NCBI GenBank assembly: GCA_002400495.2
Contig: NVQL02000076.1
Span: forward strand, 8,722-72,721
DNA: 64,000 nt
Direction: 5' to 3'
Source of the DNA: Alphaproteobacteria bacterium
Lineage (GTDB): Bacteria > Pseudomonadota > Alphaproteobacteria > Rhizobiales > OSC116
The notes beneath the pieces were generated by a model. That model saw only the letters and a program-made list of their open reading frames with translations. It was not told the origin of the DNA and did no database searches. Made by a program: the position numbers and the translations under genes. Positions 6,711 to 26,122 of this stretch are shown here, piece by piece. Numbering within the stretch: position 1 is the first letter of the stretch; every line of letters begins with the position of its first letter.

Positions 6711-7544
6711 ATGCAGCAAGGTTTTTTTGACAAAGTAGAAAAATCGGTGGCGAGTATCCACGGGTATAGCACGCTTGTTCCTGAGATTGCGATTGTCACT
6801 GGCACTGGGCTTGGCTCGGTATTGGACGAGATTGAAATTGAAATTGAAATTGCTTATGGTGATATTGAGGGCTTTCCAGTTAGTACGGCGCCAAGTCATG
6901 CGGGTAAATTGATTTTAGGTCGGTTGCACGGATATCGTGTGGTGGCTTTGAGCGGTCGGTTTCATGCTTATGAGGGTTGGTCTGATGATGAGCTGGTTTT
7001 GCCGATTTATGTGTTAAAAATGCTGGGTGCGGATAGATTGATTGTGACCAATGCGGCTGGCGGGTTAAACCCGAATTTTAGTGTGCCAAGTGTTATGTTA
7101 ATTGAAGATCACTTGTCGTTTTTGGGGGTGTTTCCTTTGGCGGGGCCAAATGATGATCGGCTTGGGGTTCGGTTTCCGGATATGAGCCGTGCTTATGATC
7201 TTGATATGAGACATGCAGCCTTGGAGATTGCCGAAAAAGCTGATATTAAAATGGAAACAGGCACTTATATTGCGTGGCATGGGCCTGCGTTAGAGACAAA
7301 TGCTGAACGTAAATTTTGCCGTATGGCTGGTGGGGATGCGGTTGGTATGTCTACAGTTTTGGAAGTGGTTGCTGCCAATCATGCTGGCATTAAAGTGTTG
7401 GGATTTTCGGTCATCGCCAATGCCGCTACGGGCGGGGATGAGCAGCAAGTGGATACGCTTGAAGATATTTTAGTGGGGGTTGATTTGGTGGCTGGAAAAA
7501 TAGGCTACGTTATTGGTCAATTATTGAAAGAGAAGAGAATTTAA
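6711..7544 (+). CDS. Purine-nucleoside phosphorylase (trimeric, PunA/XapA-like)
   Basis: GTGLG, GRFHAYEG, TNAAGG, GPALET and VGMST motifs. Confidence 0.92.
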   Translation: MQQGFFDKVEKSVASIHGYSTLVPEIAIVTGTGLGSVLDEIEIEIEIAYGDIEGFPVSTAPSHAGKLILGRLHGYRVVALSGRFHAYEGWSDDELVLPIYVLKMLGADRLIVTNAAGGLNPNFSVPSVMLIEDHLSFLGVFPLAGPNDDRLGVRFPDMSRAYDLDMRHAALEIAEKADIKMETGTYIAWHGPALETNAERKFCRMAGGDAVGMSTVLEVVAANHAGIKVLGFSVIANAATGGDEQQVDTLEDILVGVDLVAGKIGYVIGQLLKEKRI

Positions 7545-7574
7545 AAAATAGGCAAATACCCGGAGGGAAAAGCC

Positions 7575-8585
7575 ATGAATATGTTTAAGAAAATATTGTC
7601 AACAGCTGTCGTTAGTCTCTGTTTGACGACAGCCGCTACTGCGGCAGAAAAGTCATTTTACTATATTTCGCCCAACCCAATTGGGGTGAATGCATTTTTG
7701 CAAATGGGTGAAGTTGGTATTAAATCTGCGGCCGCACAAAATGATGCTATTGCCAAAATTGTTGAAAGTGATACGCCGCAATCGCGGTTAGAAAATATTA
7801 GTGCAGCGGCCAATGATGGTGCTGATATTGTGGTGGTCTTAGGCTTCGCATTTAATGATATTCTTGAAGAGGTGGCGCCGTTATATCCTGATACGCAATT
7901 TTTAATTGTTGACCAATGTATTTGGGTTGATCGTCCTGAAAACGTGAGTTGTGCTGTGTTCCGCGAGCATGAAGCTTCGTTCTTAATGGGTGCGATTGCT
8001 GGCTTGAATACCAAGAATAATAAAATTGGCGCCGTGTCCGCGATGGACATTCCATTCTTGCATAGATATACAGATTCTTTTGCTGAAGGCGCTAAATATG
8101 TGAACTCAGATGTTGAATTTGAGGTGCGGTATGTTGGTGGGCAAAACCCATTCCAAGACCCAGTTCGTGCCAAAGAAATGGCAATTTCGCTAGCAGCTAG
8201 TGGTGTTGATACATTGTTTGCGGTCACTGCAGGTGGTGATTTTGGTATTTTTGAAGCAGCAGCTGAAAATGGCTTTAAAGTTTTATCGGTTGATGTGAAC
8301 CATTGCCCTGCGGCAGAAGGTCATATCATTGAAGGCACATTGAAGCATGTTGATGCGGTGATTGAGACTTCAATTGAGCGTATTTTGGCTGGCGAAACTA
8401 GTTTTGTTGCTAGCTACGGCCTTAAAGAAGGCGGCATGGGTGCGCAAATATTAAGAAGCGATGCTGAGCTTGCTGATAGTAAATGCCTGGTTGCAGATCA
8501 AGCTGATACGATTAAGGCAGTGCGGGCGATTGCGGCTGAGATTATTGATGGCTCGTTGGTTATCAAAGATCCGATGGCGAATTGA
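7575..8585 (+). CDS. BMP-family (nucleoside) ABC substrate-binding protein
   Basis: Signal peptide; FREHEASFLMGAIAG, FQDP and LKHVD motifs. Confidence 0.9.
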   Translation: MNMFKKILSTAVVSLCLTTAATAAEKSFYYISPNPIGVNAFLQMGEVGIKSAAAQNDAIAKIVESDTPQSRLENISAAANDGADIVVVLGFAFNDILEEVAPLYPDTQFLIVDQCIWVDRPENVSCAVFREHEASFLMGAIAGLNTKNNKIGAVSAMDIPFLHRYTDSFAEGAKYVNSDVEFEVRYVGGQNPFQDPVRAKEMAISLAASGVDTLFAVTAGGDFGIFEAAAENGFKVLSVDVNHCPAAEGHIIEGTLKHVDAVIETSIERILAGETSFVASYGLKEGGMGAQILRSDAELADSKCLVADQADTIKAVRAIAAEIIDGSLVIKDPMAN

Positions 8586-8592
8586 TCCAAAC

Positions 8593-10137
8593 ATGACGAG
8601 GATTGGTTTAAACAAAACTGAGGACAGCAAAGCAGTTTGCTGTCTTTTTAATGTCTGCAAATCGTTTGGCGCTGTGCAAGCGCTTCATCACGTGTCGCTT
8701 GAAATTAGGCGCGGTGAAACCTTGGCGATTGTTGGTGAAAATGGTGCGGGCAAAACCACTTTAATGAATATATTATTTGGTTTAATGGCGCCTGATGAAG
8801 GTAGTATTTCGCTTGATGGCCAAGAGGTTGTGTTTAAAAATGCAGCGCAGGCGATTGATGCTGGGATTGGTATGGTTCATCAACATTTCATGCTTTATCC
8901 GAACCTGACTGTTTTGGAGAATATTCTAATTGGCGCTGAAGGCAAAACGCGGTTTGGTCTGTTGGATTTTGAAAAAAGGCGGACGGAAATTTTAGCGCTG
9001 ATTGATGAATTCGAATTTAAATTGGCGGTTGATAAAAAGGTGTCGGAATTATCGCTCGATGCGCAACAGCAGCTAGAAATTATTAAAATATTATACCGTG
9101 GGTCGCAGATTATTATCTTGGATGAACCGACGGCTATTTTGATTCCTAAAGAAATTGAAGCTTTGTTTAATGTGATTAAGCGCTTAACCGATGAAGGTAA
9201 GTCGGTGATTATTGTCACTCATAAATTAGGTGAAGTGATGGAAAATGCTGATCGGGTGGTCGTGATGCGCAGTGGCGAGGTGGTTGATACGTTATTGATC
9301 AGCCAAACCAGTCAAGCCGAATTGGCAAAATTAATGGTGGGTAGAGAGATTGAACCGCTCAAGAAGATTGCATTCATTAAAGATGATGTGGTGCTTGAAG
9401 TGAACGGTTTGACGGTGCAAGGGACTGGTAAAGTGGCTATGCTTGACAATATATCTTTGCAAATAAAATCGGGTGAGATATTGGGCATTGCGGGTGTTTC
9501 GGGCAGTGGACAAAAGCAATTGGTGGAGGCGTTGGTTGGCTTGCGCAACCCAGATGGCGGTGAGATTTTGTTGGATGGGGTTAACGTGAATTCCAAATCA
9601 GTTAGGCAACGGCGGGATGTTGGGCTGGCGTATATTGCCGAAGATAGAATGATGGTGGGCTTGGCTGTGGATGCATCTGTTGCTGAAAACGCCATAGCAG
9701 GACGTGAGGCGAGTGGTCAATTTACTAAATATGGGCTGTTTAATTTCCAGAAAATTAGAGAATTCACTCGGGATTTAATTGAGCGATTTGACATTCGAAC
9801 CACGGGTTCTGCGCAAATTGTGGATGACCTTTCGGGCGGTAACAAACAGAAAATAATTGTTGCGCGGGAACTGAATGGATCGCCGCGGCTTATCATTGCA
9901 GAAAACCCGTGTTGGGGTGTTGATATTGGCGCGATTAGTTTTATTCAGCGGCAATTGTTAGACTGCGCTAAGGATGGCGCAGCGGTATTATTGATCAGCA
10001 CAGAGTTGGAAGAATTATTTGATTTAAGTGATCGATTGTCGGTTTTTTACGAAGGTCGGATTAGTGCTACATTTACGAGGGCAGAATTGGATATCGGCCG
10101 CGTCGGCGAAGCTATGGCGGGAGGGGAGGCGGCATGA
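8593..10137 (+). CDS. Nucleoside ABC transporter ATP-binding protein (two ABC domains)
   Basis: GENGAGKT, GMVHQHF, LDEPTA, LSGGNKQK; start moved to ATG 8593. Confidence 0.92.
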   Translation: MTRIGLNKTEDSKAVCCLFNVCKSFGAVQALHHVSLEIRRGETLAIVGENGAGKTTLMNILFGLMAPDEGSISLDGQEVVFKNAAQAIDAGIGMVHQHFMLYPNLTVLENILIGAEGKTRFGLLDFEKRRTEILALIDEFEFKLAVDKKVSELSLDAQQQLEIIKILYRGSQIIILDEPTAILIPKEIEALFNVIKRLTDEGKSVIIVTHKLGEVMENADRVVVMRSGEVVDTLLISQTSQAELAKLMVGREIEPLKKIAFIKDDVVLEVNGLTVQGTGKVAMLDNISLQIKSGEILGIAGVSGSGQKQLVEALVGLRNPDGGEILLDGVNVNSKSVRQRRDVGLAYIAEDRMMVGLAVDASVAENAIAGREASGQFTKYGLFNFQKIREFTRDLIERFDIRTTGSAQIVDDLSGGNKQKIIVARELNGSPRLIIAENPCWGVDIGAISFIQRQLLDCAKDGAAVLLISTELEELFDLSDRLSVFYEGRISATFTRAELDIGRVGEAMAGGEAA

Positions 10138-11150
10138 GTGATTTGTTGAAAAAGACTAATCTGGTTGGTGTGGCATCGGCGGCTTTATTGCTGAGTTTGA
10201 TATTGATCATCCCTGCGAGCAGAGACGTGGCTTTTGGTTTTTGGGATGGAGTGGTTGGCGGCAGGAATCATTTTAACCTATGGACAACGCTGAGCCGTGC
10301 GTCAATTATCATCGGCATGGCAATGGCTGCATTGGTGGCGTTTCGGGCGGGCTTGATAAATTTAGGCGGTGAGGGACAGCTGGTTTTGGGTGGGCTGGTT
10401 GCTGCATTGGTTGGTGTTTATGTGGATTTACCGCCAGTGTTATTGGCGGTTGTGGCGCTTGTCTCGGCAATGTTGGCGGCGGGGCTTTGGGCATTGCTAG
10501 CTGGTTGGCTTGACCGTGTGGTTGGTATGCCATTGCTGGTTGCCTCGTTATTATTAAACTATCCTGCGAATTATTTTGCTTCCTATTTGGTGTCTCATCC
10601 CTTGCGCGATGTGATGTCGGGCATATCGCAATCGCATAAAATTGACAAGGCGGCAAGGCTGCCGAGGTTTTCTGGCACTATATTGGATTATGGTATTTTT
10701 ATTGTGATCATTTTGGTGATTTTAATCGTATGGTTAGAGCGGAATTCGATATTTGGATATCGGCTTAGAATGCATGGTTATTCGGCTAAATTTGCTGAAG
10801 TGTCGGGTTTTCCGAGCGGTAAGATATTTTATCAGGCTTTGTTTATCAGCGGGGCGATTGCGGGTTTGGTTGGGTTTTTGGTGGTGTTTGGGTTTTCGCA
10901 GCGCTATATCGATGGGATGCTGACGGTGCCACTTTATGCGTGGACGGGTATTGTTGCGGTTTTGCTGGCAGCGATAACGCCGTGGATAGTGCCGATAACG
11001 GGCTTGTTATTTGCCATTTTGGCAACTGGGGCAGGCGGCATGGAACGGGTTGCGGGTATTCCGCGCGAGGCATCGCAAATTGTGCAGGGCATGATTATTT
11101 TATGGCTGGCGGCAACGGGTAAGCCGTTAAATTCAAAGGATGGACATTGA
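10134..11150 (+). CDS. Nucleoside ABC transporter permease
   Basis: FRAGLINLGGEGQ motif; multiple TM segments. Confidence 0.9.
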   Translation: MSDLLKKTNLVGVASAALLLSLILIIPASRDVAFGFWDGVVGGRNHFNLWTTLSRASIIIGMAMAALVAFRAGLINLGGEGQLVLGGLVAALVGVYVDLPPVLLAVVALVSAMLAAGLWALLAGWLDRVVGMPLLVASLLLNYPANYFASYLVSHPLRDVMSGISQSHKIDKAARLPRFSGTILDYGIFIVIILVILIVWLERNSIFGYRLRMHGYSAKFAEVSGFPSGKIFYQALFISGAIAGLVGFLVVFGFSQRYIDGMLTVPLYAWTGIVAVLLAAITPWIVPITGLLFAILATGAGGMERVAGIPREASQIVQGMIILWLAATGKPLNSKDGH

Positions 11151-12049
11151 ACATGATGCTTGATCCGACTTTTTTTGATTCAATCGCTCGGTTTATCACG
11201 CCGCTTTTGCTGGCTGCGTTGGGCGGGGCGTTATGCGATAGGGCGGCGGTGTTTAACATTGCGCTCGAAGGCATGATGTTGATCGGGGCGTTTTTTGGCG
11301 TGGTTGGCTCTTATTATTTTGGCAGTTGGCAGGCTGGCTTATTGTTTGCCATTTTATCGGGCTTTGCTAGTGGTGTGGTGTTTTCGTGGTTTTCGATCTA
11401 TCGCAAAGGTGATGATATTGTTGTCAGCATTGGTTTTAATATATTGGCATTGGGCTTGACGGTGTTTTTGCTGCGGTATTTGTTCAATACGCGCGGGCAA
11501 TTTGATGATCCTAATATTATTGGCGTGCCGCGCATTAGCATTCCGATTATTTCGGACATTCCTTATATTGGTAATTTATTTGCTAACCAGTCCATCTTAT
11601 TTTACTTCGCGATTATATTGGTGTTTCTGATTCAATTTCTATTATTCAGGCACAAATATGGGTTATATTTGCGGGCTGCTGGTGATAATATTATGGCGCT
11701 GCGCACTGCTGGTCTTTCGCCTGAGTTGATTCAAAGTGGGGCGGTGATTGCTTGCGGAATTTTATGCGCTTTGGCGGGGGCGCAATTGTCGATCTCGAGC
11801 GTGACATTATTTGCTGAGGGCATGAGCGCGGGGCGCGGGTGGATTGCCGTGGTGATCATTATGATGTGTGCGGGGCGGCCGTTGCTTATATTGCCTGCAG
11901 CGATATTTTTTGGCCTGTTGGACGCGATTGGTTTTCGCATTCAAGCTTTTGGTGTGCCGCAACAATTTACCGATTCATTGCCGTATGTTTTGGCCATATT
12001 CATCATGGCCATTGCGATTGGCCGAAGGCGTCGTAAGTTAAATAAATAA
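11147..12049 (+). CDS. Nucleoside ABC transporter permease
   Basis: FNIALEGMML, GRGWIA and LPYV motifs. Confidence 0.9.
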   Translation: MNMMLDPTFFDSIARFITPLLLAALGGALCDRAAVFNIALEGMMLIGAFFGVVGSYYFGSWQAGLLFAILSGFASGVVFSWFSIYRKGDDIVVSIGFNILALGLTVFLLRYLFNTRGQFDDPNIIGVPRISIPIISDIPYIGNLFANQSILFYFAIILVFLIQFLLFRHKYGLYLRAAGDNIMALRTAGLSPELIQSGAVIACGILCALAGAQLSISSVTLFAEGMSAGRGWIAVVIIMMCAGRPLLILPAAIFFGLLDAIGFRIQAFGVPQQFTDSLPYVLAIFIMAIAIGRRRRKLNK

Positions 12050-12077
12050 TTGATTTTATGGATGGGGGAAGATTTAC

Positions 12078-13400
12078 ATGACTGTATTTCCACAGGCAGC
12101 CGATATTTTAGTGCTTGGCGGTGAAATTTTAACCATGGATGGTAAATTTACTAGCTTTGAAGATGGGGCTATTGCGATATCGGACAGTAAAATTGTTGCT
12201 GTTGGGCATCAGGTAGACGCTGCAAATTGCGAGGCTTGTGATACCATAAATGCCGAAGGTATGTTGGTGACGCCTGGCCTGGTCAACACCCATTGCCATG
12301 CAGCCATGACTTTGTTTCGTGGTTTGGCCGATGATGTGCCGTTGGATTTGTTTTTAAAAACCGTATGGGCAGCCGAAGCTGAACATGTCAATTATAACAA
12401 TGTTTTTGCGGGGGCGACATTGGGCATTGCTGAAATGGCAATGGGCGGAATTACGCATTTTGTTGACATGTATATGGAACCCGAAGCGACAATTGCAGCC
12501 TCACGGAAAGTTGGCATTAGTTTAACTTCTGGGCCGATATTTATGGGTATAAATTCGGTGTCTAGCGATGAATGGCAGGAACAGATGCGGGTTGCTGATG
12601 CTTATTTATCGATAGCCAAAGACAAGCCTGACGTGCAGAATATGATTATGCCGCATTCGAGTTATGCGCTGGATATGGCGCAGTTAAAAGACTTGGTTGC
12701 ATTGGCGCAAAAATATGACATTCGGATGCACACTCATGGTGCGGAAGCGCCTTCGGAAATGAAATTGGTCGCGGCGCTGCATGATGGTGCGCGACCAATT
12801 GACGTGTTTGAAAGTGCGGGTGTTTTTGCGCAAGGTGGTACATTGATTGCGCATGCGGTGGATTTAACTGATGAAGAAATTACACGTATGGCGGATTGTG
12901 GCGTTTCGGTTTCTCATTGCCCATTATCTAACAGCAAACTGGCTTCGGGCATGGCGCGGGTGAGGGATTTGCGCGCTGCTGGTGTGACTGTTTCGCTGGG
13001 TACTGATGGAGCGTCTAGTGGAAATGATCTTGATTTGTGGAAGGCCATGCGGCTGGCGAGTTTTGTGTCGGCATTGTTAACCGAGCAGCCTGCGGTTTTG
13101 CCTGCGCGGGAAATATTTGCTATGGCGACACGTGAGGGTGCAAAAGCTCTCGGGCTTGAAGATGAATTTGGTACGCTTGAAGTTGGCAAACGTGCGGATA
13201 TTATGATGATTGATATGTCGGCTTTGCATTTAACGCCTAGCTATGATCCATATTCGTCGCTGGTGTTTGCAGCTGGGCGTGAGGATGTTTGCCATGTGAT
13301 TGCGAACGGTGCGCTAGTGGTCGAAAATAAGCAACTTATTGCCGATATTTCAAGCGAAATTATGCAGGTCAAAAGAGTTGCTGATCAGATATCGGTATAA
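12078..13400 (+). CDS. Amidohydrolase, MtaD/DadD-like nucleoside deaminase
   Basis: PGLVNTHCH, HGAE, AHAV, HCPLSNSKLASG and LGTDG metal-binding motifs; nucleoside operon context. Confidence 0.8.
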   Translation: MTVFPQAADILVLGGEILTMDGKFTSFEDGAIAISDSKIVAVGHQVDAANCEACDTINAEGMLVTPGLVNTHCHAAMTLFRGLADDVPLDLFLKTVWAAEAEHVNYNNVFAGATLGIAEMAMGGITHFVDMYMEPEATIAASRKVGISLTSGPIFMGINSVSSDEWQEQMRVADAYLSIAKDKPDVQNMIMPHSSYALDMAQLKDLVALAQKYDIRMHTHGAEAPSEMKLVAALHDGARPIDVFESAGVFAQGGTLIAHAVDLTDEEITRMADCGVSVSHCPLSNSKLASGMARVRDLRAAGVTVSLGTDGASSGNDLDLWKAMRLASFVSALLTEQPAVLPAREIFAMATREGAKALGLEDEFGTLEVGKRADIMMIDMSALHLTPSYDPYSSLVFAAGREDVCHVIANGALVVENKQLIADISSEIMQVKRVADQISV

Positions 13401-15544: not shown

Positions 15545-15581
15545 TATGACATTTCCTATATATAATTTACCATTACCTCTA

Positions 15582-15610
15582 TTTGACAAATATCAGATAC
15601 ACTTGTCAAA
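15582..15610. promoter_or_regulatory. Palindromic site/divergent promoter, candidate SorC-family operator
   Basis: TTTGACA-N15-TGTCAAA between the divergent aldolase and regulator genes. Confidence 0.45.
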
Positions 15611-16699: not shown

Positions 16700-16701
16700 A
16701 T

Positions 16702-19061: not shown

Positions 19062-19120
19062 TCAAAACTCCCTTTTATTGAATGTAATTGGTTTTGTTAG
19101 TTTCGCTTGATTTAGCAAGA

Positions 19121-19162
19121 GTGACAAAATTTATATCAATTGTCAATATGATTTGACATTTG
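19121..19162. promoter_or_regulatory. TGACA/TGTCA repeat cluster, candidate operator/promoter
   Basis: TGACA-N14-TGTCAA-N6-TTGACATTTG between the divergent mtnK and ABC genes. Confidence 0.45.
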
Positions 19163-19210
19163 ATATATTTTGCTTTTAAGTTAGGCGAAATAGAGGGACG
19201 ATTAAACCGA

Positions 19211-20764
19211 ATGGGTAAAGTTAATTCATCGATAAAACTAACTGGGCTTGAAAAGAGTTTCGGCTCAAACCGTGTTCTACGCGGCATAGATTTAGATATT
19301 CCTGCAGGGGAGGTCACCATTTTAATGGGCGCAAATGGTGCAGGAAAATCTACCTTGGTTAAAGTTATGTGCGGTGTGCATAAGGCGGATTCTGGCACGA
19401 TATATTTGGCGGGAGAAGAATTTAATCCACAGACACCCGCTGAGGCCATCAAGGCCGGCATCGTGACTGTGCATCAAAATATTAATGATGGTGTGGTGCC
19501 TGATTTAGATGTTGCGTCTAACCTTATGTTGGACGTATTGGCGAACCCTCATAGTTCGGTTTTTTTATTGCCGTCGAAAATTAGAAAATCGGCGAAACAA
19601 GCGGCCGAAAGGCTTGGGCTTGATTTGGATATGAGAGCGCCCGTACACAGCTTATCGCTTGCTGATAAACAGCTTGTTGCAATCACCCGCGCCATGGCTC
19701 ATGAGCCTAATTTACTTATATTGGATGAACCAACTTCGTCGCTGTCTTTATCGGAAACCCAAAGATTATTTGAATTGCTAGATAGGCTGAAAGCGCGTGG
19801 TGTGGCGATATTATATATTTCTCATCGTATGTCAGACATTAAACGTATGGCAGACCGCATTGTTAGTATGCGAGATGGCGAAGTGAGTGGTGTGTTTGAA
19901 GGTGATGATTTAGATTATATCGGTGCGGTAAATGCCATGCTTGGGCGTAAAATAGCGGATGTTGATATACAGATTCCTGAAGTTGGTGCGCCCGTATTGG
20001 AGCTTGAAAATATTCAATTATTGCCTAGCTCGAAGCCATTTTCGTTGGCAGCGCATAAAAACGAAATTATTGTGATTACAGGTTTGGTTGGCGTTGGGAA
20101 ATCGCTACTTGCTTCGGTTTTATTTGGGCGCGAAGCTTTGTTCAAGGGTGAGATATCCTTGAATGGCCAAAAATACAATCCTAAAAATATCACCGATGCG
20201 ATTAATGAAGGGGTGTTTTTATGCGCCAAGGACCGTGGCACGAATGGCATCATTCCAGAATTTAATATCAGTCATAATATATCACTGCCATTTTTATCGA
20301 CATTATCGAAATTTGGCTTTATTGGCCGCGGCGCGGAACGAGGTTTTGCCAAAACCGCCATAAAAGATTTGGGCATTATTTGCCAAGGTGAAGATGACAA
20401 TATTGAAGAACTTTCTGGCGGTAATCAACAAAAGGTCATGGTGGCTAGATGGTTGATGAAAAGCTCAAAATTACTAATTTTAGATGAACCTTTCCAAGGT
20501 GTTGATATTGCAGCGCGGCGCGATATTGGCAATAAATTACGCGAAACCGCCAAGGATAGAGCGACGATTGTTTTTGTCACAGAATTGGATGAGGCGCTTG
20601 AAATAGCCGATCGAATTTTTGTGATGTCAGAACATGGCGTGGTGGGCGAGCATAGAAATATGAATGCGGATGCTGATTTGATATTGGCGCAAGTTTTGGG
20701 TGATCAGGTTATGGATAAACGGATGAATAAGAATATTGGAATTAGTGAAGGAGCTGCCTTGTGA
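19211..20764 (+). CDS. Sugar ABC transporter ATP-binding protein (RbsA-like)
   Basis: GANGAGKST, LDEPTSSL, LSGGNQQK; start moved to ATG 19211. Confidence 0.92.
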   Translation: MGKVNSSIKLTGLEKSFGSNRVLRGIDLDIPAGEVTILMGANGAGKSTLVKVMCGVHKADSGTIYLAGEEFNPQTPAEAIKAGIVTVHQNINDGVVPDLDVASNLMLDVLANPHSSVFLLPSKIRKSAKQAAERLGLDLDMRAPVHSLSLADKQLVAITRAMAHEPNLLILDEPTSSLSLSETQRLFELLDRLKARGVAILYISHRMSDIKRMADRIVSMRDGEVSGVFEGDDLDYIGAVNAMLGRKIADVDIQIPEVGAPVLELENIQLLPSSKPFSLAAHKNEIIVITGLVGVGKSLLASVLFGREALFKGEISLNGQKYNPKNITDAINEGVFLCAKDRGTNGIIPEFNISHNISLPFLSTLSKFGFIGRGAERGFAKTAIKDLGIICQGEDDNIEELSGGNQQKVMVARWLMKSSKLLILDEPFQGVDIAARRDIGNKLRETAKDRATIVFVTELDEALEIADRIFVMSEHGVVGEHRNMNADADLILAQVLGDQVMDKRMNKNIGISEGAAL

Positions 20765-21774
20765 AGCAAGCAAGTTTGAGTAAAGACAAAATTAAAGCTG
20801 TTGCCATTCGCTATGGATTTTTAACCTTGCTCGCTGGGTTGGTGTTGTTTTTTAGCCTATCTGCGCCCGGTTTTGCGACACCGTTTAGTGCGGTGTTTAT
20901 ATTTCAGTCGGTGGCGATTACGGGTATTTTGGCGTTGGGTGTCACTGCAACTTTGGTGGTTGATGGGTTTGATTTGTCAATTGGTTCTATCGCCACATCT
21001 AGCTTGATGTTGTCGGCCTATATTATGGTGGTGCTAGAGCAGAATGCTGTTGTGGCAGTTATTGCTTGTTTGGCCATGGGGGCCATCGTTGGCTTGGTTA
21101 ATGGTGTTTTAATTGTCTATATGCGAGTGCCCGATTTGCTGGCTACTCTTGGTATGATGTTTTTGCTGATTGGTTTACAGCGCATTCCAACCGAAGGCCG
21201 CTCTATTGCTCAAGGCATGACACTACCTGGTGGCGAAACCGCTACGGGGGTGTTTTCTAAGTCATTTTTGGCATTGGGGCGTCATAAATTTGATTTTTTC
21301 ATAGAAAATTTCATTCCATTTTCAGTCATTATATTCGTGGTGATTGCGGTTTTAATTTGGTTGTATTTTGAATTTACCCGTTATGGGCGGGTTATGTATG
21401 CGATTGGCTCTAACGAGCGTGCCGCTGGCTTAGCTGGTGTGCCCGTGCATAAATATAAAATTATTGCCTATATGATTTCAGGCGTTTTGGCCTCAGTTGG
21501 TGGTATCTTGTTGGCTGCGCGTTTGGGTCGGGGGGACATCGCTTCGGGCAATAACCTATTGCTCGATTCGGTGGCGGCGGCGTTGATTGGTTTTGCGGTG
21601 CTTGGAGCGGCAAAACCTAATGCATTTGGCACTGCCATTGGTGCGTTGTTTGTCGGTATTTTATTGCAAGGTATGACGATGATGAACGCGCCTTATTATA
21701 CGCAAGACTTTGTAAAAGGCGCGGTATTGGTTGTGGCTTTGGTGTTTACTTTTTCACTATCAAATCGACGGTAA
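20761..21774 (+). CDS. Sugar ABC transporter permease (RbsC-like)
   Basis: GFDLSIGS, LATLG and YAIGSNERAA motifs. Confidence 0.92.
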   Translation: MKQASLSKDKIKAVAIRYGFLTLLAGLVLFFSLSAPGFATPFSAVFIFQSVAITGILALGVTATLVVDGFDLSIGSIATSSLMLSAYIMVVLEQNAVVAVIACLAMGAIVGLVNGVLIVYMRVPDLLATLGMMFLLIGLQRIPTEGRSIAQGMTLPGGETATGVFSKSFLALGRHKFDFFIENFIPFSVIIFVVIAVLIWLYFEFTRYGRVMYAIGSNERAAGLAGVPVHKYKIIAYMISGVLASVGGILLAARLGRGDIASGNNLLLDSVAAALIGFAVLGAAKPNAFGTAIGALFVGILLQGMTMMNAPYYTQDFVKGAVLVVALVFTFSLSNRR

Positions 21775-21845
21775 TTCAATTCAAAATAATATTAAACCTG
21801 ACCAATTTGATATTTTAAATAAGGTCATTATTAAGGGAGAATAAA

Positions 21846-22898
21846 ATGAAAATAACCAGACGTATATTCACTTCGATGGTAGCAGGCGTGGTGTTAGCCG
21901 CAACTGGGATCATTGGAAGTGTGTCTGCAGCGGATATGCCTGCGCCATTTGACAAGCCAAGCGAAGTGAAAATTGCTTTGGTGCGTTATCTTTCGACGGG
22001 TGATTTTTTCCAAGCTTATTTGGCGGGTGTTGAATCACAAGCCAAAATATTGGGTGTTGATTTGCGTATTTTGGATAGCCGTCAGGACGCGGCTTTGCAA
22101 GCTGATATGGTTGACCAAGCGATTGCCTTGGGTGTCGATGGCATTATTGTGCAACATGGTTTAACAGAATCTATGCAAGAAGCTGTGAAACGGGCGATTG
22201 CCGCTGGCATTAAAGTGGTGGCATTTGATGTGGACGTCGAAAACCCAGATGTGCCACAAATTGAACAGTCTGACTTTATGTTGGCTAAAATGGCGCTAGA
22301 TCAAGCCATTATTGACAATGGCACAACATTTAATGCTGGCTATGTTTATGTTCCGGGCATTGCGCCGCTTGACCGTCGTGATGTGGCGTGGAAAGAAGTT
22401 AAAGACGCCAATCCAGGCATTAAACAACTTGCAGAATTTGGTACGTTGGACAACCCCATCGCCAACTCTGTTGCCAACCAAGCGCGTTCTGTTTTGGCGG
22501 CTAACCCAACCATTACGGTTATGTTTGCACCTTATGACGAATTTGCCAAAGGCGTAAAGATTGCGGTTGATGAAGCGGGTATGACCAGCCAAGTTAAGAT
22601 TTATTCGGCTGATGTTTCGACTTCTGATATTTCTGCAATGCGTGAAGAAGGAAGTGCATGGGCTGCGACGGCTGCGACAAACCCAGCAGTTGTTGGTGAG
22701 GTTTCGGTTCGGGTGTTGGCAATGTTGCTTGCGGGCGAAGATCCTGGTCACAATGTTGTGGTTCCCCCAACTTTGATCACGCAAACAATGCTGAATGATG
22801 GTGACATTAAAAACATGAAAGAGCTATCTGCAAAGATACCTGCATTTGCGCATGCAGATGTGGCTGTTCCAGCATGGATGCCGCTACCTAAACGCTAA
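21846..22898 (+). CDS. Sugar ABC substrate-binding protein
   Basis: Signal peptide, Peripla_BP-type pattern (GIKVVAFD), GGGAG RBS. Confidence 0.9.
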   Translation: MKITRRIFTSMVAGVVLAATGIIGSVSAADMPAPFDKPSEVKIALVRYLSTGDFFQAYLAGVESQAKILGVDLRILDSRQDAALQADMVDQAIALGVDGIIVQHGLTESMQEAVKRAIAAGIKVVAFDVDVENPDVPQIEQSDFMLAKMALDQAIIDNGTTFNAGYVYVPGIAPLDRRDVAWKEVKDANPGIKQLAEFGTLDNPIANSVANQARSVLAANPTITVMFAPYDEFAKGVKIAVDEAGMTSQVKIYSADVSTSDISAMREEGSAWAATAATNPAVVGEVSVRVLAMLLAGEDPGHNVVVPPTLITQTMLNDGDIKNMKELSAKIPAFAHADVAVPAWMPLPKR

Positions 22899-22920
22899 AA
22901 TGTAGTAGATATGAATGATG

Positions 22921-22952
22921 GGTCGACAAATTAATTTTGTCGGCCTTTTTTT
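22921..22952 (+). terminator. Rho-independent terminator
   Basis: GGTCGACAAA-TTAAT-TTTGTCGGCC stem followed by T7. Confidence 0.8.
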
Positions 22953-23037
22953 ATGATTGGTTCAAATTATACAAATGAAAATACTACTTGACATTTGTTG
23001 AATATTCGGCAATTTTAGTTTAAATGAACTGAGGTAT

Positions 23038-23970
23038 ATGATGAAAAATTCAAGAACGACTGAGCAGGTGGCTTTGGGCATTCGGCGTCGAGTGTTTGAA
23101 CATACGATACTTAATAATGGTGGCTATTTAAGCCAAGCTTGTTCATCTGCCGAAATGTTGGCATGGTTGTATAATGAAGCGCTTACTATTGGCGATCCGA
23201 CCTTGCCGATGATACCACGTGATTTTTCAGGCGTGCCTTCGGTTAATAATCCTGACTATGTATCTGGCGCAGGATATAATGGCCCTGCAACGCCAGAATA
23301 TGACCGCTTATTCATTGCGCCCGCGCATTATGCCTTGGTGGCTTATGCCACCTTAATTGAAGTGGGGCGAATGGCACCTGAAGGGCTTGAGATGTTTAAT
23401 AAAGATGGCTCATCGGTCGAAATGATTGGGGCTGACCATTCTCCGGGTATGGAGGTTCATAACGGCACGCTCGGCATTGGCCTTTCGACTGCATCTGGCC
23501 TTGCCTATGGCCGCAGAAAACGCGGCGATAAAGGCGAAGTTTGTGTGTTTATGTCTGACGGTGAAGTGCAAGAGGGGCAAACATGGGAAGCGGTTCAAGC
23601 TTGCGCTCATCACGGTATTGATAATGTTTGGGCGATCATGGATGTGAATAATCAGCAATGCGATGGCGCGATGTCGAGTGTAATGGAAGTGCGCGATATT
23701 GCCACAAAATTCAGAGCTTTTGGCGCGGTTGCGGTGGAAATTGACGCCCATGATTTGGACGCTATGCGCCAAGCCAAAGCGGAGCCACATGAGGGGAAAC
23801 CGCTTATTATTTTGGCGCATTCATCGCCGATGAAAGGCATGAAGAAATTGGAAGAAAGATTCCCACGCCTGCATTATGTGCGTTTTAAAAGCCCAGAAGA
23901 ACGTGCTGAATATAATATATCAATCGCCGCGGAGCTTGGTGTTGACCCCGTTGTATATGAAACACATTAA
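23038..23970 (+). CDS. Transketolase-like ThDP enzyme, N-terminal (PP) subunit, divergent
   Basis: GTLGIGLS and the SDGEVQEGQTWEA...DVNN ThDP-binding motif. Confidence 0.88.
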   Translation: MMKNSRTTEQVALGIRRRVFEHTILNNGGYLSQACSSAEMLAWLYNEALTIGDPTLPMIPRDFSGVPSVNNPDYVSGAGYNGPATPEYDRLFIAPAHYALVAYATLIEVGRMAPEGLEMFNKDGSSVEMIGADHSPGMEVHNGTLGIGLSTASGLAYGRRKRGDKGEVCVFMSDGEVQEGQTWEAVQACAHHGIDNVWAIMDVNNQQCDGAMSSVMEVRDIATKFRAFGAVAVEIDAHDLDAMRQAKAEPHEGKPLIILAHSSPMKGMKKLEERFPRLHYVRFKSPEERAEYNISIAAELGVDPVVYETH

Positions 23971-23999
23971 GAATATGACATACATTAAAGGTAGCAAAC

Positions 24000-25004
24000 A
24001 TGGTTGAAATGGTAACACGCCCGTATGCGGGTGCTTTTGAAAAATACGCTTTGGCAAACCCCGATGTAATTTGTGTATCGGCCGATTTAACATCATCTTG
24101 CGAAATTGATGGTTTTAGAGACCGTCACCCTGAGCAATTTTTATCGATGGGCATGGCTGAACAAAATATGATGAGTTTTGTCGGCGGTTTGAACATGGCG
24201 GGATACAGGCCGTTTGTTCATACATTTGGAGTGTTTACCTATAGACGACCCTATGACCAGCTTATGGCATCCATTGCCTATGGGCGCAGGAAAGTGCGCA
24301 TTATGGGTTTTTTGCCGGGCATCACAACACCGGGCGGTATGACGCATCAGGCGATTGAGGATATTTCGGTCATGCGTGCCATGCCCAATATGACCATATT
24401 AGAAACTGGTGATGCCACCGAAGTTGAGTCTATTTGCGCAGCAGCAGATAGCATTGATGGCCCCGTTTATTGCCGTGTTTTGCGCGGCAATGTGCCTCGA
24501 TTATTTGACACGCCGATAAAAGTCGGCGAAATGCGTGAGTTAAGCTCAGGCAGCGATATATTAGTGGTCACTGCGGGCATCACAACCGAAGAGGCGATGC
24601 GCGCGCGCGCGGCATTACAAGATGCGGGTGTGTCTATACGTCATTTGCATTTAAACACGTTAAAGCCATTCGATTCTGAAACTTTGTTGGATCACTTGCA
24701 GTCGGTAAAATACGGGGTGATCACGCTTGAAAACCATGTCGTTACGGGCGGGATTGGTTCGATAGTTGCGGAAACGATTGCAGATGCGGGTATCGCCAAA
24801 CGGCTTATTCGTTTAGGTTTGCAAGATACTTATGCGCATGGTGGCTCGCGTGCTTATTTAATGCGTTATTATGGCCTAGATGCATTGGCCTTAATACATG
24901 CAATTGATGATATGTTGGGCAACTCGACAGGCATAGGTGAAGAAGATTTGAATGCAGCACGTGTAGACGCTGTGCATTCTCTGGCTAAAGCTGAAGGGTT
25001 ATAA
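24000..25004 (+). CDS. Transketolase-like ThDP enzyme, C-terminal (Pyr/C) subunit
   Basis: SADL, GMAEQNM, RRPYDQ, THQAIED and ENH...GGIGS motifs. Confidence 0.9.
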   Translation: MVEMVTRPYAGAFEKYALANPDVICVSADLTSSCEIDGFRDRHPEQFLSMGMAEQNMMSFVGGLNMAGYRPFVHTFGVFTYRRPYDQLMASIAYGRRKVRIMGFLPGITTPGGMTHQAIEDISVMRAMPNMTILETGDATEVESICAAADSIDGPVYCRVLRGNVPRLFDTPIKVGEMRELSSGSDILVVTAGITTEEAMRARAALQDAGVSIRHLHLNTLKPFDSETLLDHLQSVKYGVITLENHVVTGGIGSIVAETIADAGIAKRLIRLGLQDTYAHGGSRAYLMRYYGLDALALIHAIDDMLGNSTGIGEEDLNAARVDAVHSLAKAEGL

Positions 25005-25006
25005 TC

Positions 25007-26122
25007 ATGTCGCGGTTTAATGTGACCTATAAAATATTTGCGGATAATGATAAACATGCTTTGAGCCGTGCCGAAAATATAGCCTTGGAACAAACTGTAG
25101 AAATACCGCGTGACATCGTGCCAAAAGGTTATATTGAAGACAATATATTGGGCAAACTAGAGGATATAACGCGTGCCGATAACCAGAGTTTTAACGCTCA
25201 AATTAGCTACAGCCCTGACAGCGTAGGCAGCGAATTGCCGCAATTGCTAAATGTGATATTTGGCAATAGCGGCATCCAAAAAGGCTTGAAAGTTATCGAT
25301 CTCGAATTGGGTGATGTTTTATCCCAGCGCTTTACAGGTGCAAAATTTGGTATTGATGGCGTGCGTAAAAAAATTGGCCGTTCAAGCGGCGCATTAATTG
25401 CTGCGGTGATTAAGCCACAAGGGTCGAGTGTTGATGAGTTGGCGTTGATTGCCTATCGCTGTGCGTTGGCTGGTGCGGATATCATTAAAGACGACCATGG
25501 GTTAACCAATCAACATATGGCGCCATTTAAAGAGCGGGTTGAGAAGATTTGTGAAGCGGTGGCAAAAGCCAATTTAGAAACGGGACTCAATTGTTTGTAT
25601 TTCCCGAATATTGCAGGCCATAGCGCGGATTTAGAACGATATGCTGAATTTGCTAAGAATTCGGGCGGTGGTGGCGTGTTGGTTATGCCTGGATTATTTG
25701 GGTTTGATGCGGCTTTGCGTTTGGCAAGGGATGATGATTTTAATTTACCGATTATGACGCATCCGAGCTTTTTAGGGCCGTATATTTTGTCTGAAGACAC
25801 AGGTTTTAGCCATGCGATGATGTTTGGTAAAATACAACGTCTATGCGGTGCTGATATTTCGGTGTTTCCAAATGTTGGCGGTCGGTTTGGTTTTTCTGAG
25901 TTGGAATGCCGATCTATTGCCATTGCTTGCAAATCAGATGATGGCATTGGCAAACCAATCATGCCTAGCCCTGGGGGCGGGATGACCAAGGAACGTGCGG
26001 CAGATTTAAAAACCATGTATGGAGACGATGTGGTTCTTTTGCTGGGTGGTTCGTTGCTGCGTTATGGCGATAAAATTGGTGACGGAATTAAAGAAATGCG
26101 CACGGCGCTTGATGCTGTTTGA
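25007..26122 (+). CDS. RuBisCO-like protein (form IV RLP)
   Basis: IALEQTVE, IKPQG, GADIIKDDHGL, THPS and PSPGGG motifs; 371 aa; lacks canonical KPK and KDDE. Confidence 0.92.
   Translation: MSRFNVTYKIFADNDKHALSRAENIALEQTVEIPRDIVPKGYIEDNILGKLEDITRADNQSFNAQISYSPDSVGSELPQLLNVIFGNSGIQKGLKVIDLELGDVLSQRFTGAKFGIDGVRKKIGRSSGALIAAVIKPQGSSVDELALIAYRCALAGADIIKDDHGLTNQHMAPFKERVEKICEAVAKANLETGLNCLYFPNIAGHSADLERYAEFAKNSGGGGVLVMPGLFGFDAALRLARDDDFNLPIMTHPSFLGPYILSEDTGFSHAMMFGKIQRLCGADISVFPNVGGRFGFSELECRSIAIACKSDDGIGKPIMPSPGGGMTKERAADLKTMYGDDVVLLLGGSLLRYGDKIGDGIKEMRTALDAV

Follow-up and report, generated by a model that had tools for sequence, protein, structure and literature searches.

A putative 5-methylthioribose and 5-deoxyribose utilization locus of Alphaproteobacteria pairing a RuBisCO-like protein with an atypical split transketolase

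The DHAP shunt is an established route of carbon catabolism in E. coli (PMC10986504), and the cupin-type RuBisCO-like protein RLP1 of R. palustris has been reported as a proven 5-methylthioribulose-1-phosphate (MTRu-1-P) 1,3-isomerase (PMC5893883). Other RuBisCO-like proteins (RLPs) are described as acting on unrelated sugar acids, for example in apiose catabolism (PMC6302742). For transketolase (TK), work on the E. coli enzyme describes a hydrogen bond between His100 and the terminal hydroxyl of the donor, acceptance of the non-hydroxylated donor pyruvate by the variants H100L/F/T, and control of the acceptor by Asp469 (bioRxiv 10.1101/719906). Conversion of 5-deoxyribose to 7-deoxysedoheptulose by ordinary TK has been reported for a cyanobacterium (PMC8102628).

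We analyzed a stretch of alphaproteobacterial DNA of 64,000 nucleotides (hereafter, the window), part of which had been described from its sequence as a single 19.5 kb supercluster for scavenging by-products of S-adenosylmethionine (SAM). All 17 genes of this preliminary description were recovered at their positions using open reading frames, Pfam, and NCBIfam (Table 1). The region is instead composed of two units of unequal standing, as the nucleoside module (6711-13400) was not conserved together with the core (13493-26122) in 80 RLP loci and four close relatives. The core, which is conserved in Alphaproteobacteria, contains a class II aldolase-SDR fusion, a SorC regulator, MtnA, MtnK, a sugar ABC transporter, a split TK, and the RLP. 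Its arrangement was found again in tens of other genomes and is therefore not due to chance. Hoeflea, Maritalea, and Pannonibacter are among the carriers that have been cultured. We infer that the core serves the use of 5-methylthioribose (MTR) and/or 5-deoxyribose (5dR), taking up and breaking down sugar left-overs of SAM chemistry. The whole explanation that we favor, with a probability of roughly 65%, is such a core with two branches, one of which uses the RLP and then TK cleavage, together with an added nucleoside module. Directly observed are the identity and co-occurrence of the genes, the patterns of residues, and the structure of the clades. The window also carries several other sugar clusters.

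Table 1. Positions of genes and sites in the core and the nucleoside module
Feature	Position	Strand	Match or location
PNP, trimeric-type; candidate 5'-methylthioinosine / 5'-deoxyinosine phosphorylase	6711-7544	+	NF006054, 299.6 bits (cut-off 218)
Bmp/PnrA-family substrate-binding protein, nucleoside-type ABC importer	7575-8585	+	PF02608, 154 bits
ABC ATPase, two cassettes, nucleoside-type importer	8593-10137	+	PF00005, two stretches
Permease, nucleoside importer	10134-11150	+	PF02653 (the two permeases 97.8 and 105.5 bits)
Second permease, nucleoside importer	11147-12049	+	PF02653 (as above)
TRZ/ATZ-family, amidohydrolase-superfamily deaminase; candidate MTA / 5'-deoxyadenosine deaminase	12078-13400	+	4f0r, 235.7 bits
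Class II aldolase + SDR fusion	13493-15589	-	NF006192, 880 bits (cut-off 639)
Palindrome TGACAA-N13-TTGTCA; candidate operator	15584-15608	.	Between divergent aldolase-SDR and SorC genes
SorC/DeoR-type regulator with sugar-phosphate-binding domain	15656-16699	+	PF04198, 193 bits, and HTH
MtnA, 5-methylthioribose-1-P / 5-deoxyribose-1-P isomerase	16702-17796	-	NF004326, 484.9 bits (cut-off 271)
MtnK	17793-19061	-	TIGR01767, 499.5 bits (cut-off 275)
Palindrome, second copy, TGACAA-N12-TTGTCA	19122-19145	.	Between mtnK and sugar ABC operon
Sugar ABC ATPase	19211-20764	+	PF00005, two stretches
Permease, sugar ABC transporter	20761-21774	+	PF02653, 133 bits
Periplasmic binding protein; candidate 5-methylthioribose / 5-deoxyribose binder	21846-22898	+	4ry8
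Terminator-like hairpin and T run	22920-22946	+	Between binding-protein gene and TK genes
TK N-half (TK-N), ThDP-binding	23038-23970	+	6yak (split TK), 111.6 bits
TK C-half (TK-C)	24000-25004	+	6yaj, 188.8 bits
RLP; candidate 5-(methylthio/deoxy)ribulose-1-P 1,3-isomerase	25007-26122	+	3qfw, 221 bits

Co-location was assessed in 80 loci of RLP relatives (55-77% identity), 60 of which had full 10 kb flanks. TK-C was present in 72 of the 80 and, in 71 of these 72, lay no more than 150 nt upstream of the RLP on the same strand; in the window, the RLP starts 3 nt past the TK-C stop. The full-flank loci contained TK (55), MtnK (51), MtnA (52), the binding protein (50), SorC (at least 40), and the aldolase-SDR fusion (at least 36), the last two counts being lower bounds because the fusion lay just beyond the retrieved flank in four of five further genomes checked. 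Over all 80 loci, SorC was found in 46 and the aldolase-SDR gene adjoined the cluster in 45. Among 151 genomes of one family, the 17 that have the RLP are the same 17 that have TK-N (at least 60% identity), and 16 of them carry both genes on a single contig at a distance of about 2 kb. TK was encoded elsewhere in all four tested genomes with a TK-less RLP locus. This evidence makes the RLP and TK an obligate pair. The preliminary description had put them in one branch and left their relation unsaid; the pairing is borne out, and TK can now be seen to stand in the place of the cupin.

It is very unlikely that the substrate of this pair is a pentulose phosphate with no link to SAM by-products and that the pair is just a frequent neighbor of mtnK and mtnA where sugar catabolism genes abound. 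Such a view could draw on the seven of 60 full-flank loci where TK-RLP occurs alongside another ABC system or SorC-like regulator, without MtnK or MtnA within 10 kb, on the RLPs of unrelated sugar acids reported for apiose catabolism (PMC6302742), and on the neighboring sugar clusters of the window. However, MtnK or MtnA accompanies the pair in the other 53 of these loci, a second RLP subclade has the single operon mtnK-mtnA-tkN-tkC-rlp in all four loci fetched, and MtnA can be supplied from elsewhere along with MtnP. Furthermore, the nearest characterized RLP clade acts on MTRu-1-P, and the RLP scores 70.7 bits with the OiaX model versus 205.7 bits with the MtnW model.

A free-sugar route through the ABC transporter, MtnK, and MtnA had been proposed, as had two branches leading from the pentulose-1-phosphate, namely aldolase-SDR and RLP with TK. 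Wide co-occurrence of the route with both branches supports these proposals, as does the binding protein, whose nearest solved relative by sequence is 4ry8 (226.6 bits), entitled '5-methylthioribose transporter solute binding protein TLET_1677'. By structure, 4ry8_B was again the best match (Z 39.6, 37% identity, 314 residues aligned), with ribose binders lower at Z 28-31. The likely start of the sugar ABC ATPase is an in-frame ATG at 19211, which is preceded by GAGGGA. MtnA also exceeds the cut-off of TIGR00512 (423 bits, cut-off 279) and is the sole copy in the genome by tblastn. The free sugar would be imported by the transporter, phosphorylated at C1 by MtnK, and converted by MtnA to the ribulose-1-phosphate. 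The genome's own MTA would enter at the MtnA step via MtnP, which is encoded with apt on another contig.

The first branch would be a DHAP shunt within one polypeptide, in which the class II aldolase domain would release DHAP and methylthioacetaldehyde or acetaldehyde, and the fused SDR domain would next reduce or oxidize this aldehyde. Its sequence makes the fusion a candidate 5-(methylthio/deoxy)ribulose-1-P aldolase and aldehyde oxidoreductase. GGGNTS, HTH155-157, HGH216-218, TGxxGAIG, NAGAA, and YGLPK596-600 are invariant in 33 orthologues, and there was no other candidate aldolase in the genome, which is 91.6% complete. Carbon catabolism, the use suggested earlier for the cluster, is the one already reported for this shunt in E. 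coli (PMC10986504).

The second branch would open with the RLP, which may convert the ribulose-1-phosphate to 1-methylthio-xylulose-5-P, or to 1-deoxy-xylulose-5-P when 5dR is the source. Its best solved match, 3qfw, outscores MtnW (2zvi, 142 bits). A tree built with a quick IQ-TREE version places the RLP as sister of the R. rubrum-type MTRu-1-P isomerases, whose clade is cupin-linked. Within a class sample of 401 genomes, one clade (SH-aLRT 99) unites 16 RLPs with 34-40% identity, and a Cupin_2 gene lies directly downstream of the RLP in 13 of the 16 cupin-clade members. The window-type and cupin-linked RLPs have in common 62 conserved positions, which include a Lys/Lys/Asp/His core and K136, K161, D163, H164, and H252, and differ at nine positions that are conserved within each clade. 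Because identity is only about 35-40%, the substrate or product may differ. As described previously, the window contains no mtnB, mtnC, mtnD, or cupin gene. Genome-wide, MtnD (ARD) had no match, MtnB and MtnN had none above the cut-off (the sole MtnB match being a 3-oxo-tetronate-4-P decarboxylase), and the RLP-linked cupin had no homologue in the genome (13 queries) or in the 80 loci.

TK residues were compared in 53 TK-N (52 orthologues and the window's) and 57 TK-C sequences (56 orthologues and the window's) with E. coli TK as the reference. The GDG/N metal motif and His66 are invariant in all TK-N, as are Glu411, His473, and the phosphate binders Arg358, Ser385, and Arg520 in all TK-C. Conversely, His26 is replaced by Tyr30 and His100 by Met129 in 53/53 sequences, and His461 by Phe104 and Asp469 by Gly112 in 57/57. 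TK-N has a clade-specific insertion of about 40 residues, and the equivalence of His261 comes from a weak alignment. His26 is one of the catalytic histidines of TK, so the cleavage chemistry may differ in ways that an alignment does not reveal. For His100, the assigned role derives from experiments on the E. coli enzyme in which hydroxypyruvate and pyruvate were used rather than ketose phosphates that lack the C1 hydroxyl (bioRxiv 10.1101/719906). We infer from the residue pattern that the substrate cleaved by TK is the 1-methylthio- or 1-deoxy-xylulose-5-P that the RLP would form; this reaction, the order of RLP before TK, and every substrate named here are readings of the same kind. The ketose would serve as donor, cleavage between C2 and C3 would release glyceraldehyde-3-P while a C2 unit stays bound to ThDP, and this unit may leave as an aldehyde, or as an acetyl unit after loss of methanethiol.

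Transketolases normally need an acceptor, and both the fold and the cofactor residues are of the transketolase type. TK could thus be a true transferase that passes a 1-hydroxyethyl or 2-methylthio-1-hydroxyethyl unit of the RLP product on to an aldehyde acceptor, the resulting 1-deoxy or 1-methylthio ketose being a metabolite or signaling sugar and not feed for central metabolism. Replacement of the acceptor-selecting Asp469 by Gly goes with non-hydroxylated acceptors in engineered TKs (bioRxiv 10.1101/719906), and the cyanobacterial formation of 7-deoxysedoheptulose offers a precedent (PMC8102628). We nonetheless consider a transferase unlikely, since genes for an uptake system, a kinase, and a sugar-phosphate repressor of the catabolic type accompany the module, there is no conserved gene nearby to handle a transferase product, and the data name no acceptor. 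For the preferred cleavage by TK, the genome encodes an O-acetylhomoserine sulfhydrylase to capture methanethiol.

The nucleoside module adjoins the core only in this genome. Gene-neighborhood analysis, the check suggested in the preliminary description, confirmed co-occurrence within the core and not that of the module: its ABC genes lay beside the RLP in none of the 80 loci, the deaminase (at least 45% identity) likewise in none, and PNP in two. These two loci, L022 and L027, are a partial parallel, as a deaminase gene accompanies PNP there, immediately upstream of the RLP. The 17-19 kb past the aldolase-SDR gene contained no module genes in four close relatives. The Bmp-type binding protein has solved relatives among the Bmp lipoproteins (for example, 4pev and 2fqw), and the ATPase, listed as an open reading frame from 8461, likely starts at an in-frame ATG (8593) just past the Bmp stop. 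The deaminase best matches 4f0r, a '5-methylthioadenosine/S-adenosylhomocysteine deaminase', and is below the cut-off of all NCBIfam equivalogs (for example, 303 versus 522 for 5'-deoxyadenosine deaminase). PNP, best matched by 6tk9 (232 bits), retains the Asn of the 6-oxopurine type. It has Leu where a paralogous PNP on contig C99 has His and where the PNPs of L022 and L027 have Ile; we take this position to be His257 of human PNP, which binds the 5'-hydroxyl.

That the module is an ordinary purine-nucleoside scavenging operon, a chance neighbor that does not feed the MtnA step, is a serious but less probable alternative. It would fit the missing module in the closest relatives, the lack of the Bmp transporter in the 80 loci, the absence of the core palindrome upstream of PNP, and the score of PNP as an ordinary purine-nucleoside phosphorylase. 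Contig C99, moreover, carries a paralogous SorC-Bmp-PNP operon, so such operons are generic in this genome. Against it stand the MTA/SAH-type relative of the deaminase, the Leu in PNP, and the same His loss in L022 and L027; by sequence, both enzymes look tuned to MTA/5'-deoxyadenosine-type substrates. The reading that we prefer is a lineage-specific addition beside the core, in which the Bmp-type importer probably brings in MTA or 5'-deoxyadenosine, the deaminase forms the inosine derivative, and PNP then yields the same pentose-1-phosphate as the core.

The TGACAA-N12/13-TTGTCA palindrome has two matches in the 64 kb (0.02 expected), both in promoter regions of the core, and is kept in 14 of the 80 RLP loci (L002 and 13 others). 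A SorC-type repressor that answers to a pathway sugar phosphate probably binds both divergent promoter regions; the regulator is below the cut-off of NF053881 DeoR (206.5 bits, cut-off 420). The half-sites at 15584-15608 also look like the -35 boxes of a divergent promoter pair, and the palindrome therefore need not be an operator. The second copy overlaps a promoter-like site (19140-19169). The hairpin after the binding-protein gene (11 pairs, then TTTTTTT) is, as a consensus match, the strongest terminator-like site of the region.

The main interest of the locus is the pairing of a RuBisCO-like enzyme with an unusual transketolase, whose reaction, to our knowledge, has no description to date. 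Compared with the R. rubrum shunt, TK is found here in place of the cupin methylsulfurylase.

Seventeen genes in four transcription blocks occupy positions 6711-26122 of the window, and ORF calls together with Pfam and NCBIfam searches recovered there every gene listed in the preliminary description. Curated NCBIfam cut-offs are exceeded by MtnK (TIGR01767, 499.5 bits against a cut-off of 275), MtnA (NF004326, 484.9 bits against 271), PNP, and a fusion of a class II aldolase with a short-chain dehydrogenase (SDR). None of the two halves of a split transketolase (TK-N and TK-C), the RuBisCO-like protein (RLP), the deaminase, and the SorC/DeoR regulator reaches any NCBIfam equivalog cut-off. The RLP gene starts 3 nt past the TK-C stop. 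Relatives of the window's proteins occur in Alphaproteobacteria such as Maritalea, Hoeflea, Oricola, Roseiarcus, and Paracoccaceae.

Positions and arrangement of the cluster and of neighboring features in the window
Feature	Position	Strand or orientation	Remarks
Metallopeptidase-like protein	4904-5947		347 residues; weak astacin/matrixin-type match (32.9 bits); just upstream of the cluster
AT-rich gap	5948-6710		760 bases, no long ORF; precedes the PNP operon
Promoter-like site	6626-6653		
Imperfect palindrome match	6647-6669		AT-rich, two mismatches
Nucleoside module	6711-13400	+	PNP, Bmp-family binding protein, ABC ATPase (start probably ATG at 8593), two permeases, amidohydrolase-type deaminase
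Core	13493-26122		fusion to RLP gene
Aldolase-SDR fusion		-	698 residues
SorC/DeoR-type regulator		divergent from the fusion	
mtnA, mtnK		convergent on the regulator	
Sugar ABC operon		divergent from mtnK	ATPase, permease, binding protein
Terminator-like hairpin	22920-22946		between the sugar ABC operon and the TK-N, TK-C, and RLP genes
Membrane sensor	28071-29192		MHYT repeats and LytTR domain
Molybdoenzyme set	29362-38297		CoxMSL/xanthine-dehydrogenase type
Further sugar catabolic clusters	39617-42628; 52522-63517		

The host assembly comprises 3.96 Mb in 122 contigs and is 91.6% complete. An ordinary transketolase (tkt) and DXS are encoded elsewhere in the genome, as are O-acetylhomoserine sulfhydrylase and an MTA phosphorylase (MtnP) followed by an adenine phosphoribosyltransferase. 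Within this 91.6%-complete genome, no MTA nucleosidase or MtnB scored above cut-off and no match to MtnD (ARD family) was obtained; the best match to the MtnB model (63 bits against a cut-off of 137) is OtnC. The only other class II aldolase of the genome is a 3-oxo-tetronate-4-phosphate decarboxylase. Endogenous MTA should enter as methylthioribose-1-phosphate through MtnP and therefore needs the MtnA of the window, which is the sole copy found. MtnK is sensible only for sugar of external origin.

TK and RLP form an obligate pair that is tied to MtnK and MtnA, as follows from locus counts, a family sample, relocated TK genes, and the gene runs of a second subclade. Eighty loci with RLPs 55-77% identical to that of the window, 60 of them with full 10 kb flanks, were searched with the window's proteins. 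TK-C or TK is present in 72 loci (55 of the 60 with full flanks), MtnA in 62 (52), the sugar binding protein in 62 (50), and MtnK in 61 (51). The counts for the SorC regulator, at least 46 (at least 40), and for the fusion, at least 45 (at least 36), are lower bounds; a fusion missing from the fetched flank was found just beyond it in four of five genomes checked. Of the 72 loci with TK-C, 71 carry it on the same strand as RLP and no more than 150 nt upstream. TK is missing from eight loci, two of which are cut off upstream of RLP. Four genomes representing the remaining six were examined, and all four carry TK-N elsewhere (75-78% identical). No cupin was found among 14 ORFs beside the RLP of these loci (L004, L012, L017, L022, L027, and L034).

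The relocated TK genes of three genomes have no conserved neighbors, except that in two related genomes (G009 and G012, loci L134 and L136) they adjoin genes for a DUF924 protein and for an AMP-binding acyl-CoA ligase of 601 residues. Since the two genomes are related, this neighborhood counts as one observation; such a ligase would suit an acetate product.

Among 151 genomes from the family of one carrier, RLP was found in 17 and TK-N (at least 60% identity) in exactly those 17, with the two genes about 2 kb apart on one contig in 16. Two further genomes gave TK-N matches of only 38-42%, which are different split transketolases. Six of the 17 carriers belong to a second subclade (RLP 46-49% and TK-N 60-63% identical). 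In all four of its fetched loci (L139-L142, from genomes G553, G525, G487, and G509), mtnK-mtnA-tkN-tkC-rlp is a single same-strand run with the sugar ABC operon divergent from it, and the fusion is adjacent in two. The RLP-TK pair occurs widely among Alphaproteobacteria of marine and soil origin. The proposal of one supercluster is supported for the core but does not extend to the nucleoside module.

Beside RLP, the Bmp transporter and the deaminase were found in none of the 80 loci and PNP in two. Deaminase relatives in 22 carrier genomes do not exceed 39% identity, and in four close relatives the 17-19 kb beyond the fusion gene contain no part of the module. Upstream of PNP, the only match to a palindrome of the core promoters is imperfect and unconvincing. 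A paralogous SorC-Bmp-PNP operon is located at about 350-7352 of C99, another contig of the host genome; its PNP is 39% identical to that of the window and keeps a His where the latter has Leu. The nucleoside module is not part of the conserved unit. It may be an ordinary nucleoside operon, which we regard as unlikely, or it may serve a dedicated role, for which the odds appear slightly better than even. The best solved relative of the deaminase is the MTA/SAH deaminase 4f0r (235.7 bits), with scores of 303 against 522 bits for equivalog NF005557 and 205 against 779 for NF012037. An Asn typical of 6-oxopurine enzymes is retained in the PNP, as would suit a substrate that has been deaminated, and its Leu occupies what we take to be the position at which human PNP binds the 5'-hydroxyl through His257. 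Directly upstream of RLP in L022 and L027 lie a deaminase and a PNP with a change at the same position (Ile). The deaminase relative, the PNP residues, and these two loci point to MTA or 5'-deoxyadenosine as the probable substrates.

The RLP contains the RuBisCO large-subunit catalytic domain (PF00016, 80.6 bits). Its best solved relative is the R. palustris-type protein 3qfw (378 residues, 221 bits), against 142 bits for 2zvi (MtnW), 98 for the C. tepidum RLP, and 93 for RLP2; MtnW enolases do not exceed 142 bits. The KPQG and IKDDHGL motifs are common to RLP and 3qfw, and MtnW has IKDDE in the alignment. The active-site pattern is present, including the Lys of KPQ, with Lys-Asp-Asp-His replacing the Lys-x-Asp-Glu of RuBisCO and MtnW. 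In a class sample of 401 evenly drawn genomes, the window's own included, an RLP of this type occurred in one other genome (66% identity), RLPs with 34-40% identity in 16, and RuBisCO-family proteins with 27-30% in five. A Cupin_2 gene lies directly downstream of 13 of the 16 RLPs in the 34-40% group, as in the MTA-isoprenoid shunt of R. rubrum and R. palustris; at L120, L123, and L127 the ORFs chosen for the cupin check had no Pfam match, reading frames being uncertain in high-GC DNA. A quick maximum-likelihood tree places the cupin-linked RLPs in one clade (SH-aLRT 99, branch length 3.2) apart from all TK-linked ones, with the TK-less loci nested within the TK-linked set. In this tree and by its 34-40% identity, the window's RLP falls outside the clade of characterized cupin-linked enzymes. 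Searches with 13 cupin sequences gave no homologue in the 91.6%-complete genome, the 80 loci, or the four second-subclade loci.

Common to both RLP clades are 62 clade-conserved positions, among them K136, K161, D163, H164, and H252, and only nine positions are conserved within both yet differ between them. Passages of PMC5893883 describe RLP1 of the MTA-isoprenoid shunt as a proven 5-methylthioribulose-1-phosphate 1,3-isomerase, after which the cupin, a methylsulfurylase, strips the methylthio group. We read the RLP of the locus as probably catalyzing the same or a very similar isomerization, with its product taken by a different enzyme. Apiose-type pathways with an RLP and a transketolase were rejected, as the OiaX model gave 70.7 bits against a cut-off of 700.

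The best solved relatives of TK are both chains of the Carboxydothermus split transketolase (6yak/6yaj). Alignment of 53 TK-N and 57 TK-C sequences, those of the window included, against TktA of E. coli and the Tkt and Dxs of the host genome revealed that the residues for cofactor and phosphate binding are retained. The GDG...N cofactor/metal motif (Asp174/Gly175 and Asn204, equivalent to E. coli D155/G156 and N185), the cofactor-activating Glu54(C) (E411), the phosphate binders Arg7(C), Ser33(C), and Arg162(C) (R358, S385, and R520), and E. coli His66 and His473 are all kept and invariant. Four catalytic and specificity residues of the E. coli enzyme are replaced, also invariantly within the clade: His26 by Tyr30, His100 by Met129, His461 by Phe104(C), and Asp469 by Gly112(C). 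The genome's own tkt retains all four. The equivalent of E. coli His261 is probably the His in the invariant motif PRLHYVRFK, which lies in a weakly aligned region, and an insertion of about 40 residues is located near the N terminus of TK-N. The cut-off of NF004559, the best-scoring curated transketolase model, is not reached by either half (134.4 bits for N and 191.6 for C against a cut-off of 488), nor is TIGR00232 (48 and 51 bits against 682). TK-C does not reach the DXS model TIGR00204 (155.7 bits against 466); the real dxs of the genome scores 785.6. Members of the TK-N clade number 3983 proteins at E 1e-30 or better. Databases name the protein only "transketolase", and no paper describing an RLP-transketolase route was found in the full-text literature searched, a search that took in neither subscription journals nor supplements.

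According to passages of bioRxiv 10.1101/719906, His100 of E. coli transketolase forms a hydrogen bond to the terminal hydroxyl of the donor, its replacement by Leu, Phe, or Thr allows the enzyme to accept pyruvate, a donor without that hydroxyl, and Asp469 controls the acceptor. The known RLP product, 1-methylthio-xylulose-5-phosphate, is xylulose-5-phosphate with SCH3 in place of the C1 hydroxyl. Transketolase donors need the threo configuration and a 5-phosphate, and this compound has both. Because the phosphate binders are kept and the hydroxyl binder is hydrophobic, the residue pattern would fit a 1-substituted xylulose-5-phosphate donor of the 1-methylthio or 1-deoxy type.

Several reactions could follow. 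By the same isomerization, RLP would convert 5-deoxyribulose-1-phosphate to 1-deoxy-xylulose-5-phosphate. The C2 unit held by TK might be released as an aldehyde, transferred to an acceptor, or, in the case of the methylthio compound, become an acetyl unit after loss of methanethiol. In the last case, TK would be a natural ThDP enzyme of a new kind, a 1-substituted xylulose-5-phosphate ketolase. It would cleave 1-methylthio-xylulose-5-phosphate to glyceraldehyde-3-phosphate and a ThDP-bound enamine, which would expel methanethiol to leave acetyl-ThDP and then acetate or acetyl phosphate. Phosphoketolase expels water at the equivalent enamine stage. To this methanethiol-expelling, DXP-linking reading as a whole we assign a probability of roughly 0.25. 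If it is true, sulfur and all five carbons of methylthioribose would be recovered independently of glutathione and oxygen, RLP would link a waste sugar of radical-SAM enzymes to the precursor of isoprenoids, thiamine, and pyridoxal, and TK would set the balance between salvage and catabolism.

The binding protein of the sugar ABC operon is closest in sequence to 4RY8 (226.6 bits), an entry titled as a 5-methylthioribose transporter binding protein. Its AlphaFold model (pLDDT 85.4) aligns with 4RY8 over 314 residues at Z 39.6, rmsd 2.9, and 37% identity, against Z 28-31 for ribose-binding proteins. The importer probably serves marine Alphaproteobacteria in taking up methylthioribose or deoxyribose; 5-deoxyribose is an equally good candidate for the ligand. 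An AI-2 (Lsr-like) system was rejected, since the scores of the Lsr models fall far short of their cut-offs and the match of the binding protein is to the methylthioribose binder.

The aldolase domain of the fusion (PF00596, 74 bits) has invariant GGGNTS, HTH, and HGH motifs, and the class II aldolase motifs as well as the cofactor and catalytic motifs of the SDR part are kept in all 33 aligned orthologues. The fusion belongs to family NF006192, which is rhamnulose-1-phosphate aldolase/dehydrogenase-like. As judged from these motifs, it is a candidate for both the cleavage step of the DHAP shunt and the handling of the resulting aldehyde.

The regulator has the domain build of a SorC/DeoR-type sugar-phosphate repressor, with an N-terminal HTH (HTH_11, 30.7 bits) and a SorC sugar-binding domain (PF04198, 193.1 bits), and falls short of the equivalog models for B. 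subtilis DeoR (206.5 against 420 bits) and LsrR (134 against 486). The whole 64 kb contain just two copies of the palindrome TGACAA-N12/13-TTGTCA (0.02 expected), which lie in the two divergent promoter regions of the core. The palindrome recurs at both places in the closest relative, and in 13 further RLP loci. Its label as a putative operator is tentative because the half-sites also resemble -35 boxes. A promoter scan gave 48 sites where 42.9 were expected and was uninformative as a whole.

The window is a catabolic neighborhood. Downstream of the cluster, the MHYT repeats and LytTR DNA-binding domain of the membrane sensor occur without a receiver, an unusual one-component arrangement. The adjoining molybdoenzyme comes with its complete set of accessory genes: FAD, 2Fe-2S, and 842-residue molybdopterin subunits are followed by CoxD-like AAA, CoxE-like VWA, two XdhC, MobA-like, and CoxG genes. 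It could oxidize hypoxanthine released by PNP, or an aldehyde; the set was not seen with the cluster in the other loci. Of the two further sugar clusters, one contains SIS, GatZ/KbaZ-like, and DeoR genes and the other is of the hexuronate type, with UxaC, UxuA, a mannitol-dehydrogenase-type UxuB, KdgK, Eda, a TRAP transporter, and a GntR regulator.

MTA and 5'-deoxyadenosine are produced by every cell, and their sugars reach the environment. The ways in which bacteria dispose of these sugars or live on them are still under study. Two known ideas meet in the locus: the DHAP shunt and, from the MTA-isoprenoid shunt, the RLP route. Its new features are a distinct RLP clade strictly paired with an atypical TK, likewise distinct, that takes the place of the cupin; an aldolase-dehydrogenase fusion in this setting; and the association with a SorC regulator and an ABC importer of the methylthioribose type. 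This suggests a third way to finish the RLP route, with a dedicated transketolase-like enzyme where the cupin would stand. TK carries a natural version of the active-site change engineered for non-hydroxylated donors and is a candidate natural biocatalyst for 1-deoxy ketoses.

Pseudomonas aeruginosa uses a route of MTA deaminase and methylthioinosine phosphorylase. The nucleoside module would likewise put deamination before phosphorolysis, but its phosphorylase is of the trimeric PNP family (NF006054) and not the MTAP family, with 60.7 bits against a cut-off of 223 for the MTI phosphorylase model. TLET_1677 (PDB 4RY8), the best match of the cluster's binding protein in both sequence and structure, belongs to Thermotoga lettingae, a member of a different phylum. 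TK shares the ThDP/metal site, Glu411, His66, His473, and the phosphate binders with canonical transketolases, and its split halves with that of Carboxydothermus hydrogenoformans (6yak/6yaj); it differs from both in the Tyr, Met, Phe, and Gly substitutions and the N-terminal insertion. The hydrophobic swap of the donor-hydroxyl His is shared with engineered E. coli and Geobacillus enzymes (His100/His102 to Leu, Phe, or Thr). Unlike these, the change in the locus is natural, is to Met, and is accompanied by three others, and the presumed donor is a ketose 5-phosphate instead of pyruvate.

With the DHAP shunt (MtnK or MtnP, MtnA, and Ald2; DrdK/DrdI/DrdA in Bacillus thuringiensis; E. coli ATCC 25922), the locus shares the kinase, the isomerase, and the class II aldolase domain. 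Passages of PMC6079011 and PMC10986504 provide a precedent for external 5-deoxyribose or 5'-deoxynucleosides as a carbon source. Whereas Ald2 of that shunt stands alone, the aldolase here is the N-terminal domain of an SDR fusion of about 700 residues, and the ABC importer, the SorC regulator, and the RLP-TK branch are additional. R. palustris also runs a DHAP shunt and an RLP route side by side, as passages of PMC5893883 report. As in the MTA-isoprenoid shunt of R. rubrum and R. palustris (MtnP, MtnA, DeepYkr RLP, and cupin), MtnA would feed an RLP of the same broad lineage, independently of oxygen and of MtnB/C/D. In contrast to that shunt, the RLP of the locus belongs to a sister clade (34-40% identity), no cupin was found in the genome or the 80 loci, the invariable partner of the RLP is an atypical split TK, and free sugar can also enter through the ABC importer and MtnK.
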